Virus record (IMG/VR): IMGVR_UViG_2802429253_000007
Reading direction: 5' to 3' (one strand)
DNA length: 4,004 nt
Origin: a virus
Lineage: Duplodnaviria; Heunggongvirae; Uroviricota; Caudoviricetes
The notes below the pieces were generated by a model, which was not told the DNA's origin, searched no databases, and saw only the letters and a list, made by a program, of their open reading frames with translations. Positions 1,471 to 3,743 of this stretch are shown piece by piece. Made by a program: the position numbers and the translations under genes. Each line of letters starts with the position of its first letter. Positions within the stretch are counted from its first letter, which is position 1.

Positions 1471-2067
1471 TCACCCCCGCGTGGCGGACATGATGCCCAA
1501 AGGGGTATCGATGATTTCCAGACAGGCGTCGGTCAGCTTTTCCATGCGGTTAAACCAGCCGTTCAGGTATTTGCCCTGGGCGGGTTTTGATTTGATGATG
1601 TCGGCATAAAAGCGGGAACGACGGACAATACAGCGGGCCAGCAACCAGTCCGGGGTGGACAGGCTCACGGCCTTACGGGTACGCGGGCCGATGATGCCGT
1701 CAGCATCCACATCCGCGGCTTCCTGCAAAATTCTGATGGCTTTTTTAACGCCATGCTGAACCGCCGCATCGAACACAAACATCGCCACGCCATCAGGCCA
1801 CTGGTCACATCCGGCAGGCAGCCAGTAATCGCGCCAGTAAATCTGCGCAACCTGTTCGCGGGTTAAGTCCCTGATGCGGGTATCCGGTTTGCCGTCGCCG
1901 TTGACATCGGTTTTGCCGTCAATCACACCGTCGCGGCGGTCAGAAATGCCGTATTTGGTTTCGCCGCCACGGTCAGTGGGGTCATTGACATAAACGCCTT
2001 CGATATCAGGACGCAGAATAAAATTCAGCGCATGTTCAAAGGCCGGGGAGAATTTTTGATTTTCCAT
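1471..2067 (-). CDS. Glycoside hydrolase family 108 lysozyme (endolysin candidate) with C-terminal peptidoglycan-binding (PG_binding_3-like) domain, 198 aa
   Basis: N-terminal motif EGVYVNDPTDRGGETKYGI matches the conserved GH108 catalytic signature; C-terminal DADGIIGPRTRKAV resembles the PG_binding_3 motif. AGGTG lies 5 nt upstream of ATG 2067. There is no N-terminal hydrophobic/SAR segment, so it is presumably cytoplasmic and holin-dependent. Confidence 0.9.
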   Translation of the reverse strand: MENQKFSPAFEHALNFILRPDIEGVYVNDPTDRGGETKYGISDRRDGVIDGKTDVNGDGKPDTRIRDLTREQVAQIYWRDYWLPAGCDQWPDGVAMFVFDAAVQHGVKKAIRILQEAADVDADGIIGPRTRKAVSLSTPDWLLARCIVRRSRFYADIIKSKPAQGKYLNGWFNRMEKLTDACLEIIDTPLGIMSATRG

Positions 2068-2079
2068 AAAAGCACCTGT

Positions 2080-2106
2080 GAAGCAGAGTTAAACGTGGTC
2101 TGCTTC
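2080..2106. promoter_or_regulatory. Perfect 8-bp inverted repeat GAAGCAGA-N11-TCTGCTTC immediately upstream of the lysozyme RBS (candidate operator or 5'-UTR hairpin)
   Basis: Read directly from the sequence: 2080-2087 GAAGCAGA and 2099-2106 TCTGCTTC are exact reverse complements. It sits between the mor terminator and the lysozyme SD. Function is inferred only. Confidence 0.3.
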
Positions 2107-2120
2107 ATGGTGCCGGAGGC

Positions 2121-2146
2121 ATAAAAAAAGCCGGATTTACCGGCTT
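2121..2146 (-). terminator. Rho-independent terminator downstream of mor
   Basis: On the minus strand: stem AAGCCGG / loop TAAAT / stem CCGGCTT followed by TTTTTAT, starting 6 nt after the mor stop codon. The stem is short (5 GC pairs plus 2 AU pairs) but the U-tract is clear. Confidence 0.6.
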
Positions 2147-2152
2147 CATTGA

Positions 2153-2602
2153 TTAAGGGCGTCGTGGCGGACGACGAACGGGATGAGGCAGGTTCGGGGA
2201 GGGGTAAAACAAATCCGGCTGGTATTTATTGCGCTCCAGACGTCGCATCCGTTTGATGGCCTTGTAGACGGTTTTATACGTCACTCCGTAACGCTGAACC
2301 AGTTCAGGAATATTATGGCCGTTAAAATCACGCCAGATACGCATATCCCGGACAAGATTCTCCAGAATATTCCCCCTCGGAACATAAACCTGCATCCCGC
2401 CGATATGGCGACAAATCGCCACAACCAGCTCAAGGGAATGAGCAGGGTCTGCGCCAATCCGGGCCAGCTCTTTACGCAGCAGTGCGTTCAGTTCAGAAAG
2501 TAACGCCGGATAAGCGGTGTTTTCCTGGTAATCATGAAGATATTCCAGAACGCTGTCGTCCCGGAGGTCTTCGAATAAATCCTGCTCTTTCATCTGTTTC
2601 AT
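2153..2602 (-). CDS. mor: Mor (middle operon regulator) / Mor-C family transcription activator, 149 aa
   Basis: Translation closely resembles phage Mu Mor as I recall it (DLFEDLRDD..., PALLSELNALLRKELARIGADPAHSLELVVAICRHIGG.QVYVPRG, RDFNGHNIPELVQRYGVTYKTVYKAIKRMRR). ATG at 2602-2600 overlaps the gemA stop (ATGA), the same gemA-mor arrangement as in Mu. It carries a C-terminal Pro/Arg-rich extension. Confidence 0.88.
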   Translation of the reverse strand: MKQMKEQDLFEDLRDDSVLEYLHDYQENTAYPALLSELNALLRKELARIGADPAHSLELVVAICRHIGGMQVYVPRGNILENLVRDMRIWRDFNGHNIPELVQRYGVTYKTVYKAIKRMRRLERNKYQPDLFYPSPNLPHPVRRPPRRP

Positions 2603-3150
2603 ACAGCAATTCTCCCGCTGTTTCGTGCGCGGGCATATGCACTGGTCAGTGCATCATAGCCGCGCAGCTCCCGCCCGGTTTCGCTCACAGGTAAAGGCAC
2701 ACCATGTCGGGCAAAGGCTTCCCGGATGCAGCGCATGTGCCACTGTTTGAGCGTTTCGAGCACAACATGCAACGATTCCCCGTGACACCATGCCAGCGTG
2801 GAAACACCCTGACCGCCATTACGTCTGGCCGTCAGGCGTTCAACGTATTTGTCCAGCGCGGCGTCGCTGATATCGGAGACGAAACCATCAAGAAACATCT
2901 GCTGCCAGATTTTATAAATCTTCTCGCGCGGTGTGACATGCCCCTTAAAGCGACGGCGGGGATGTTTTTTCTGCTTCTTAAAACCGCGCTCTTTCATGGC
3001 ATCGAGCACCTGTTCCAGTTGTGCAACGGACAGCTCGCGGCAACTGGTCTTGCCTGTGCACTGCACCAGAAAGGCGCGGTAAGTGTCATCGTCGAGTTGT
3101 AGATCACGACGGGCGACATGAATTAATTTAATCAGGGATGTGCGATTCAT
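2599..3150 (-). CDS. gemA: GemA / Mu gp16-like protein (DUF1018 family), 183 aa
   Basis: Start placed at ATG 3150 (MNRTSLIK...) because GGAGG lies 7 nt upstream; the track ORF begins 18 codons earlier without an SD. Motif LIKLIHVARRDLQLDDDTYRAFLVQCTGKTSCRELS is characteristic of the Mu gp16/GemA family, and the gene is immediately upstream of and overlapping mor. Confidence 0.85.
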   Translation of the reverse strand: MNRTSLIKLIHVARRDLQLDDDTYRAFLVQCTGKTSCRELSVAQLEQVLDAMKERGFKKQKKHPRRRFKGHVTPREKIYKIWQQMFLDGFVSDISDAALDKYVERLTARRNGGQGVSTLAWCHGESLHVVLETLKQWHMRCIREAFARHGVPLPVSETGRELRGYDALTSAYARARNSGRIAV

Positions 3151-3164
3151 TATCGTACCTCCAG

Positions 3165-3191
3165 AAAAGGGGGCGGTGCGGCAACACCGCC
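3165..3191 (-). terminator. GC-rich hairpin plus short T-tract just upstream of the gemA RBS (weak intrinsic terminator or attenuator candidate, or mRNA structural element)
   Basis: Minus strand reads GGCGGTG-TTGCCG-CACCGCC (7-bp stem, 6-nt loop) followed by CCCTTTTCT, then the GGAGG SD of gemA. The 3-nt spacer and only four T residues make it suboptimal as a terminator. Confidence 0.3.
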
Positions 3192-3223: not shown

Positions 3224-3490
3224 ATGAAAAACAGTGAACAGCCTTATGATGTTGCAGGGTATGTCATTGCCTCAAGGTTGCTGATACTCCTTGTCAGAAA
3301 GGGGCTAATTACCGCAGAGGAAGGCAAAACGATCCTCGAAGCCGCAGCAAGCGGAGCGGCAGAGGCTCCGGCATTGAGAACAACGAATAATCCCATCCTG
3401 CAAATATCACAGCTAATCACTGATACCATCAGTTTGTTAGACCAAGATTCTGATGAATATCAAAAGCCTCAGCCATCTGAGCATCCGTAA
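3224..3490 (+). CDS. Candidate small protein (88 aa) encoded opposite to the surrounding operon; hypothetical
   Basis: ATG 3224 preceded by AGAGGAAA (SD with about 8-9 nt spacing, AT-rich spacer). Product is hydrophilic and helix-like (MKNSEQPYDVAGYVIASRLLILLVRKGLITAEEGKTILEAAASGAAEA...). Against it: the 3' end overlaps the minus-strand 104-aa gene by about 60 nt, it contains several rare codons, and a competing minus-strand ORF covers the same DNA. Confidence 0.35.
   Translation: MKNSEQPYDVAGYVIASRLLILLVRKGLITAEEGKTILEAAASGAAEAPALRTTNNPILQISQLITDTISLLDQDSDEYQKPQPSEHP
3244..3429 (-). CDS. Alternative candidate small ORF (61 aa), mutually exclusive with the plus-strand ORF at 3224-3490
   Basis: ATG at 3429-3427 overlaps the stop of the upstream 104-aa gene (TGATG), an arrangement typical of translational coupling. 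No SD; product is Ser/Ala/Val/Leu-rich with almost no charged residues, which could be a small membrane peptide or an antisense shadow. Confidence 0.2.
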   Translation of the reverse strand: MVSVISCDICRMGLFVVLNAGASAAPLAAASRIVLPSSAVISPFLTRSISNLEAMTYPATS

Positions 3491-3743
3491 GAATATCTTT
3501 ATTTGATAGTCCCAGCCTGCGACGAATGTATTCCTCGCGGGCTGCTTCATTTTGTAGCGCCACGGCAGTTTCCACCTGGTTCATTTCACGGTTAATAATG
3601 CTCCGGACTTCTCTGGCGGTGAGGTCATGCTCAATACCATATTTAACGATATCGTGCATACGTTCCAGCATCCTTAAATTAGCCATGACGCCATCAATAT
3701 CAACTGGTGTGAATTTCATTTCTTTTTTCTCTGGTTTATTCAT
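3429..3743 (-). CDS. Hypothetical protein, 104 aa (Mu-like early-region protein of unknown function)
   Basis: ATG at 3743 with GAGGT about 8 nt upstream. Hydrophilic, charged, helix-like translation (MNKPEKKEMKFTPVDIDGVMANLRMLERMHDIVKYG...). Start overlaps the stop of the upstream ORF by 8 nt. No family recognised. Confidence 0.7.
   Translation of the reverse strand: MNKPEKKEMKFTPVDIDGVMANLRMLERMHDIVKYGIEHDLTAREVRSIINREMNQVETAVALQNEAAREEYIRRRLGLSNKDILTDAQMAEAFDIHQNLGLTN

Follow-up and report, generated by a model that had tools for sequence, protein, structure and literature searches.

A promoter-overlapping hairpin that may restrict lysozyme translation to Mor-initiated mRNA in Mu-like phages

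The intergenic region preceding the lysozyme gene in a 4,004-nt stretch of viral DNA (IMG/VR record IMGVR_UViG_2802429253_000007; hereafter the window) contains an inverted repeat that is the inner part of a larger hairpin, in which bases of a predicted promoter core pair with the ribosome-binding site of the gene. With moderate confidence we propose that this arrangement constitutes start-site-gated insulation, as at gene e of phage T4, by which the lysozyme would be translated only from mRNA that is initiated under the control of the activator Mor. The analyses described below concern the anatomy of this region, its homology with the middle promoter Pm of phage Mu, the conservation of the fold in related promoters and the predicted accessibility of the ribosome-binding site.

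The genes concerned are located on the minus strand of the window in the order gemA, mor, an 85-nt gap and a gene for a GH108 lysozyme (lys):

2599-3150, minus strand: gemA, encoding GemA
2153-2602, minus strand: mor, encoding a Mor-family transcription activator of 149 aa (Pfam PF08765, E = 3.6e-30)
1471-2067, minus strand: GH108 lysozyme gene with a PG_binding_3 domain (Pfam PF05838 and PF09374), ATG at 2065-2067

The Shine-Dalgarno sequence of the lysozyme gene is AGGTG (2073-2077, minus strand), and the lysozyme is annotated alike in E. coli prophages. Small lysis-cassette ORFs and a gene encoding a TraR/DksA zinc-finger protein are also on the minus strand. The window DNA is 95-99% identical to Mu-like prophages carried by some 40 completely sequenced E. 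coli strains. The phage collection contained no cultured phage with such a lys region; Mu, D108 and SfMu matched in the gemA part only. Among the Mu-like prophages, the complete annotated one of E. coli strain PSS-15 (L001) has a single gene annotated as belonging to the Mor/C family, and no C homologue is annotated in it. In some E. coli relatives (L002-L005) an extra ORF of 108-169 aa is present between mor and the terminator/promoter module described below; wherever such a gene follows mor, the module as a whole is found next to lys. Two further observations were made around gemA. The sole plus-strand gene of the window (3224-3490, 88 aa) converges on the minus-strand gene 3429-3743 and overlaps its 3' end by 62 nt, and gp15 of Mu has a similar opposite-strand placement beside gemA. 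In addition, a G+C-rich hairpin, GGCGGTGTTGCCGCACCGCC followed by CCCTTTTCTGGAGG (3172-3191, minus strand), lies directly 5' of the gemA start (3150); it resembles a terminator and adjoins the gemA Shine-Dalgarno sequence.

The gap between mor and lys contains the following elements, given in the order in which they occur on the coding strand:

2135-2150, minus strand: predicted Mor-binding dyad AATGA-AGCCGG-TAAAT, homologous to positions -51 to -36 of Mu Pm (AGTAA-AGCCGG-TTAAT)
2123-2147, minus strand: terminator-like hairpin GAAGCCGG-TAAAT-CCGGCTTT followed by T7 (terminator scan; RNAfold, -12.6 kcal/mol)
2107-2112, minus strand: predicted -10 hexamer CACCAT, located 10 nt past the T7 tract, as is TATCCT in Mu Pm
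2099-2100, minus strand: predicted transcription start (+1), A2099 or G2100, 7-8 nt past the hexamer by homology with Mu Pm

The coding strand of the first half of the gap reads TAA (mor stop codon) - tcAATGAAGCCGGTAAATCCGGCTTTTTTT - ATGCCTCCGG - CACCAT - GAAGCAGA, and continues after GAAGCAGA with ccacgtttaac - TCTGCTTC - ac - AGGTG - ctttt - ATG. The predicted dyad matches the Mu Pm dyad at 13 of the 16 positions, the next 13 nt are identical, and the spacing to the hexamer is the same; on the basis of this homology the dyad is the predicted binding site of Mor. The Mu region just after mor, AGTAAAGCCGGTTAATCCGGCTTTTTTT, is nearly identical to the Mor-box/hairpin/T7 block of the window. The published cloning primer 'Mu Pm nt9163' covers this Mu region, identifying it as the middle promoter Pm. 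In the literature the Mor dyad of Mu Pm is located at -51 to -36 and consists of two 5-bp inverted repeats round a G/C-rich hexamer, with its centre at -43.5. When Mu Pm was numbered from this published dyad, the mutant positions -57G and -54A were reproduced, TATCCT was placed at -13 to -8, and +1 corresponded to the eighth base after the hexamer. Within the hexamer, A in the second and T in the sixth position are nearly invariant in 42 aligned lys-type promoters, and a promoter scan of the mor-lys gap detected no sigma-70 promoter with a -35 box. Mor of the window is 63% identical to Mu Mor, with a near-identical helix-turn-helix, and just 32% identical to Mu C, which at the sequence level identifies the window activator as a Mor orthologue. 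As part of our proposal, and held with equally moderate confidence, the 85-nt gap would thus be a Mu Pm-type, Mor-dependent sigma-70 promoter superimposed on the upstream operon's terminator.

The hairpin at 2123-2147, an 8-bp stem followed by T7, is an intrinsic terminator according to the definition used, and all relatives have retained it. It shares bases with the Mor dyad, and its T7 tract is at the same time the promoter spacer. Judging from the copies outside a Mu context described below, the Mor box of Pm resembles a generic terminator hairpin. The hairpin of the Mor-box region is presumably the mapped early terminator of Mu; a literature search for the Mu early terminator 't9.2' gave no match.

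An identical Mor box, again with the hairpin and T7, is present in the PSS-15 prophage (14406-14425, minus strand), 60 nt before the start of a protease (gene I-like) gene. This box (within 14352-14430, minus strand) is homologous to window 2127-2146 and is followed by a 6-bp stem, CCGTCG...CGACGG, with an 11-nt loop. Just upstream of it we observed three direct repeats of TTTTGAAGG(T/G)G (14470-14515, minus strand), which might function as an UP-like element or be bound by a different factor. Because of this second box before the protease gene, Pm-type promoters appear to be used directly for late genes. Together with the single annotated Mor/C-family gene of that prophage, this points to a cascade of two tiers, in which late genes would be driven by Mor itself and no C protein would take part.

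The repeat itself overlaps the downstream part of this predicted promoter. Its arms are:

2099-2107, minus strand: 5' arm, TGAAGCAGA in the mRNA sense, from the last base of the -10 hexamer through the predicted +1 (-8 to +1)
2079-2087, minus strand: 3' arm, TCTGCTTCA in the mRNA sense, within the 5' UTR and ending 1 nt short of the Shine-Dalgarno sequence

Sequence reading and a repeat search confirmed that a perfect inverted repeat exists; the 8 bp given for it in the original prediction was one pair too short, as the arms are 9 bp on each side (TGAAGCAGA-N11-TCTGCTTCA, 2079-2107), separated by a loop of 11 nt. In agreement with that prediction, the repeat adjoins the lysozyme ribosome-binding site (the 3' arm ends 1 nt before the AGGTG), and, as far as position is concerned, it does overlap the promoter core. 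By Mu Pm spacing we infer that +1 coincides with the final one or two bases of the 5' arm. Viewed against the window in its entirety, the repeat is unremarkable: two perfect repeats of at least 9 bp with a loop of 3-20 nt were observed versus 0.26 in dinucleotide shuffles of the 4-kb window, and other repeats of 8-9 bp occur in coding DNA. When the 85-nt intergenic region was dinucleotide-shuffled, a repeat of at least 9 bp appeared in 0.4% of the trials and one of 8 bp in 1.7%. The mini-ORF reported to run through the repeat is present (2025-2108, minus strand, 27 codons plus stop). As a candidate gene it was rejected: among 75 related promoters neither its start codon nor its length nor its frame is conserved. 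In about 30 of them CTG, TTG or another triplet takes the place of the ATG, and where the ATG is kept the ORF can be as short as 4 or longer than 39 codons and occurs in each of the three frames with respect to lys.

RNAfold minimum free energy (MFE) and centroid structures both placed the repeat in the inner part of a hairpin of about 50 nt, the outer helix of which is formed by:

2109-2114, minus strand: 5' strand GGCACC, the anti-Shine-Dalgarno segment, overlapping the -10 hexamer
2071-2076, minus strand: 3' strand GGUGCU, comprising four of the five bases of the Shine-Dalgarno sequence AGGUG

Three additional pairs of the outer fold reach just beyond the AUG. RNA reading through the region (2062-2122) folded with -22.9 kcal/mol (z = -4.66), a stability reached by none of 200 shuffled sequences, and RNA starting at the predicted +1 (2099) was essentially unstructured (-6.0 kcal/mol, z = +1.14). 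The outer helix can, according to these predictions, form only in transcripts starting upstream of the promoter. The suggestion that the repeat is a translational control element is thereby supported, though with a modification: the repeat itself forms the inner stem, and the -10 region and the Shine-Dalgarno sequence are paired by the outer helix. The repeat does not conform to the definition of an intrinsic terminator, having an 11-nt loop and no U-tract adjoining the inner stem. The possibility of a second terminator was also considered and rejected, UUUU after the extended stem being confined to two families (those of the window and L004). An Rfam scan gave nothing at threshold; its best match, sroD with 25 bits versus a threshold of 50, was on the terminator rather than on the repeat.

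Conservation of the hairpin was analyzed using a scan for the box plus T-run pattern in IMG/VR, supplemented with E. coli prophages and Mu, which yielded 133 occurrences with 75 distinct downstream sequences. Nearly all genes behind these Pm-type promoters encode a GH108 lysozyme; 11 encode the protease and four, those of Mu and close relatives, gp18. A hexamer of the form yAnnnT is present at a fixed distance in all 75 promoters, and in almost all of them a hairpin starts 0-2 nt past the hexamer and ends at the Shine-Dalgarno sequence, with a mean z of -3.2 relative to dinucleotide shuffles. The stems have unrelated sequences (GAAGCAGA, GGAAGGG, GGAACA, GAGAAGG, GGGAUU, GAGGAAAGUG, UGAAAA, CUGUCCGUC and UGAUGA). 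Moreover, in 73 of the 75 promoters four or more nucleotides of the translation-initiation region (TIR) are paired with sequence upstream of the predicted +1. The way in which the ribosome site is occluded differs between families. In most of them GCAC(C) pairs with (G)GUGC, in the SfMu-like group the spacer sequence GCCCUC pairs with GAGGGC, and in several families AUGCCUGC just past the T-run pairs with GCAGGCAU across the start codon. The anti-Shine-Dalgarno segment also shifts relative to the hexamer, being the CAC of the hexamer in the window, a GGCAC straddling it in L004, and the spacer CCCTC, opposite GGAGGG, in L006.

Chimeras in which the 5' half of one promoter was joined to the 3' half of another had a mean MFE of -11.1 kcal/mol versus -19.7 kcal/mol for the native sequences, a loss of about 8.6 kcal/mol, and none of the 62 arm swaps involving the window was as stable as the native hairpin. 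This loss of stability indicates that the two arms co-evolved. RNAalifold applied to a plain MAFFT alignment of 42 promoters returned no consensus structure, since neither the length nor the register of the arms is constant and the anti-Shine-Dalgarno segment shifts relative to the hexamer; the evidence for co-variation is that of the refolding and arm-swap tests rather than of a column-wise test. Sense and antisense strands did not differ in MFE (paired Wilcoxon p = 0.67), and G-U pairs therefore do not identify the RNA strand. In a separate scan of one genome per species the 22-mer AGCCGGTWAATCCGGCTTTTTT was found at 83 loci. The 13 Mu-like copies, from Klebsiella, Raoultella, Serratia, Pluralibacter, Trabulsiella, Brenneria and Kluyvera, included new stem variants, and the 60 nt past the T-run of these enterobacterial copies had z values of -1.6 to -4.9. 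As controls, 58 loci in Bacteroidota and other phyla and seven chromosomal loci in Pantoea/Enterobacter, all having the 22-mer without a Mu-type promoter, had downstream z values of about 0 and about +0.8, respectively. These non-Mu copies (among loci L130-L211) are apparently ordinary terminators.

To express the accessibility of the ribosome site we used the ensemble cost of unpairing the TIR from -14 to +3; all energies are predicted values. For the Pm-type promoters the mean cost of opening the TIR was 13.5 kcal/mol in RNA starting after the T-run versus 7.0 kcal/mol in RNA starting at the predicted +1, and the other 41 genes of the PSS-15 prophage gave 7.1 and 6.6 kcal/mol in the corresponding contexts. 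Both the long-context cost and the difference distinguished the Pm-type genes from the other genes of this prophage (Mann-Whitney p ~2e-14 for each). The lys gene of the PSS-15 prophage itself had the highest opening cost (12.5 kcal/mol) and the largest drop (6.4 kcal/mol) among its 43 genes, and a relief of at least 3 kcal/mol was obtained in nine of ten sequence families. A scan of 5' ends showed that the cost falls stepwise through the spacer and the hexamer and is at baseline 2 nt past the hexamer. Since occlusion is gone for any 5' end at least 2 nt past the hexamer, the conclusion is independent of the exact start site. The same scan showed that the inner stem, that is, the repeat originally reported, does not itself occlude the ribosome site; its role is likely to be that of holding the strands of the outer helix together. 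At the protease-gene promoters the inner hairpin is kept and the relief is weak or absent, TIR opening costing 8.8 and 9.8 kcal/mol in read-through and +1-initiated RNA of the PSS-15 prophage, and 9.1 and 7.7 kcal/mol on average for the family. There, the 3' arm of the inner stem covers the first two G's of GGAG. The small relief at these promoters implies that the inner stem may have an additional or different role.

On the basis of these results we propose the following course of events. The 5' half of the hairpin would be the promoter core, from the spacer through the -10 hexamer as far as +1, and the 3' half would correspond to the 5' UTR of lys together with its Shine-Dalgarno sequence. 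The inner stem of 9 bp would join the strands of the outer helix GGCACC/GGUGCU, with the start codon also being covered in many relatives. RNA coming from upstream, either by leakage of early-operon transcription through the terminator or from a spurious start, would carry both halves, fold, hide the ribosome-binding site and remain untranslated; such untranslated read-through RNA might in addition be exposed to Rho. Mor-activated RNA, starting at about 2099-2100, would be devoid of the 5' half, essentially unstructured and hence translated, so that lysozyme synthesis would be tied to Mor-dependent initiation. Read-through may be rare because a strong-looking terminator (8-bp stem plus U7) is located immediately upstream.

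Other explanations of the hairpin have to be weighed against start-site gating. It might be formed in read-through or processed RNA for a different purpose, for instance as an RNase III or RNase E target that splits early from late RNA, as a protective 3' stem, or as a back-up terminator. The fold is indeed stable and conserved, and UUUUAU follows the extended stem in the window and L004 families. The U-run is missing after the stem in most families, however, so termination is not what is conserved; helices of 14-18 bp with internal loops are short for RNase III; and what is consistent is the pairing of the Shine-Dalgarno sequence or AUG with promoter sequence, in 73 of 75 cases. We therefore consider a different purpose in such RNA unlikely. 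It is also quite unlikely, in our estimation, that the repeat acts at the DNA level in the Mor-dependent promoter by affecting melting, promoter escape or the response to supercoiling near +1. Such a role would be in line with the position of the 5' arm at -8 to +1 in every promoter of this type, including the low-occlusion ones of the protease genes, and with the equal folding of both strands. Yet the arms, being 11-19 nt or more apart, would never be single-stranded together in a bubble of 12-14 nt, and loops of such length disfavour cruciform extrusion. Moreover, the outer helix specifically involves the Shine-Dalgarno sequence or AUG, and a shifting anti-Shine-Dalgarno segment fits selection for RNA pairing, not for promoter geometry.

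A 9-bp stem near the 5' end of a message has the classic shape of a stabilising hairpin, and a 5'-UTR stabilising or processing hairpin was among the roles originally suggested for the repeat. For the lysozyme mRNA this would require a start upstream of the 5' arm, and the promoter's own mRNA, starting at the last base or two of that arm by Mu Pm spacing, would lack it. The -10 hexamer, at the exact Mu Pm spacing and with conserved A2 and T6, has the first base of the arm as its own last base and is itself part of the extended helix; and a start further upstream would need a different promoter, none being visible in the promoter scan of the gap. A 5'-terminal stabiliser is consequently very unlikely. 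Even less probable is the reading originally put first, in which the repeat would be an operator bound by a dimeric protein, either Mor or some other regulator of the phage. It is a perfect palindrome with an 11-bp spacer that overlaps the promoter core, as might be expected of an operator. Among relatives with the same gene order, however, complementarity is conserved and arm sequence is not, the arms having been replaced by unrelated sequences that still pair. Furthermore, the half-site does not recur as a pair: of the five exact copies of GAAGCAGA found with the complete PSS-15 prophage, two are the arms, two fall in coding sequence and one in host DNA. At the co-regulated promoter of the protease gene the stem is an unrelated one (CCGTCG/CGACGG), and the site homologous to the mapped Mu Mor dyad is located about 30 nt further upstream (2135-2150), which also argues against binding of the Mor-like protein to the repeat. 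Finally, a palindrome arising by chance and having no function might be considered, given that the window has three perfect 9-bp repeats within 40 nt, two of them in coding DNA. The value for the intergenic region (p ~0.004), the maintenance of the fold by differing sequences in at least 10 families and the lack of excess structure in the non-Mu controls make this the least credible of the readings discussed.

Premature synthesis of lysozyme or holin kills the host before phage assembly, and phages layer the controls of their lysis genes. If start-site gating is correct, the gap would be a three-in-one insulator of about 85 nt, combining a terminator that is also the activator site, the activator site itself and start-site-gated translation, with terminator, activator site, promoter and translational gate all packed into that length. 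It would explain the non-consensus -10 hexamers starting with C and the AGGUG Shine-Dalgarno sequence, would provide a concrete prediction for the classic Mu Pm region, and would constitute a small natural part for synthetic biology in which expression is set by the position of the transcription start. For annotation it would be a caution that palindromes beside ribosome-binding sites in phage late regions need not be operators.

The similarity to Mu Pm comprises the Mor dyad with its AGCCGG core, the CCGGC plus T7 tract and the distance to the -10 hexamer, and it extends to the RNA level, where a helix CCUGUGAUGA/UCAUCAUGGG pairs positions -10 to -1 with the gp18 start codon. Opening the TIR of Mu Pm-gp18 has a predicted cost of 11.1 kcal/mol in the long RNA versus 3.7 kcal/mol in the +1-initiated RNA. 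In Mu, Pm drives the middle operon (gp18-C) and the C-dependent promoter Plys drives the lysozyme gene, whereas here a Pm-type promoter would drive the lysozyme gene directly. At Mu Plys (C-lys intergenic region, L008 2440-2490) we observed that a GCCATC situated past the putative -10 TAGACT and before the lys leader has its complement, GATGGC, at the lys start codon, and that the predicted cost of opening the TIR is 8.9-11 kcal/mol for 5' ends at least 30 nt upstream and 2.4 kcal/mol for one at 25 nt. The same gating may operate at C-dependent promoters. Whether there is a general Mu-like device, including Mu Pm-gp18 and possibly Plys-lys, in which the core of an activator-dependent promoter doubles as anti-ribosome-binding-site strand and the first gene of each Mor- or C-dependent operon is translatable only from activator-initiated mRNA, is in our view evenly balanced. 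We found no description of a leader hairpin of this kind in the Mu-like phage literature searched (older primary Mu papers lay outside the search). Translation of the mom gene of Mu is subject to a hairpin that is opened by binding of the Com protein to the mRNA. The present case resembles Com/mom in that a hairpin occludes the translation start in a phage of the Mu family, but here no trans-acting factor would be needed, as the choice of transcription start would decide.

The closest resemblance is to the T4 genes e, soc, 49 and I-TevI, for which transcripts coming from upstream sequester the ribosome-binding site in a hairpin, and transcripts from the gene's own promoter, located inside the DNA for the 5' strand, are translated (PMC3014915). 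As at T4 gene e, the ribosome-binding site of a lysis gene is paired in upstream transcripts, here according to prediction, and the hexamer and predicted +1 lie inside the DNA for the 5' strand. This type of control is thus already known from T4, and as part of our proposal we regard the Mu-like case, with moderate confidence again, as a new example of it. Several differences are apparent. The T4 genes have gp55-dependent late promoters (TATAAATA) and no upstream terminator, whereas here the promoter would be an activator-dependent sigma-70 promoter, with an intrinsic terminator overlapping the activator site immediately upstream, and the anti-Shine-Dalgarno bases come from the -10 region itself. 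The two systems are not homologous in sequence, and the effect was measured in T4 and is predicted here. If the proposal is correct, Mu-like phages would have reached the solution of T4 independently, with very different transcription machinery.
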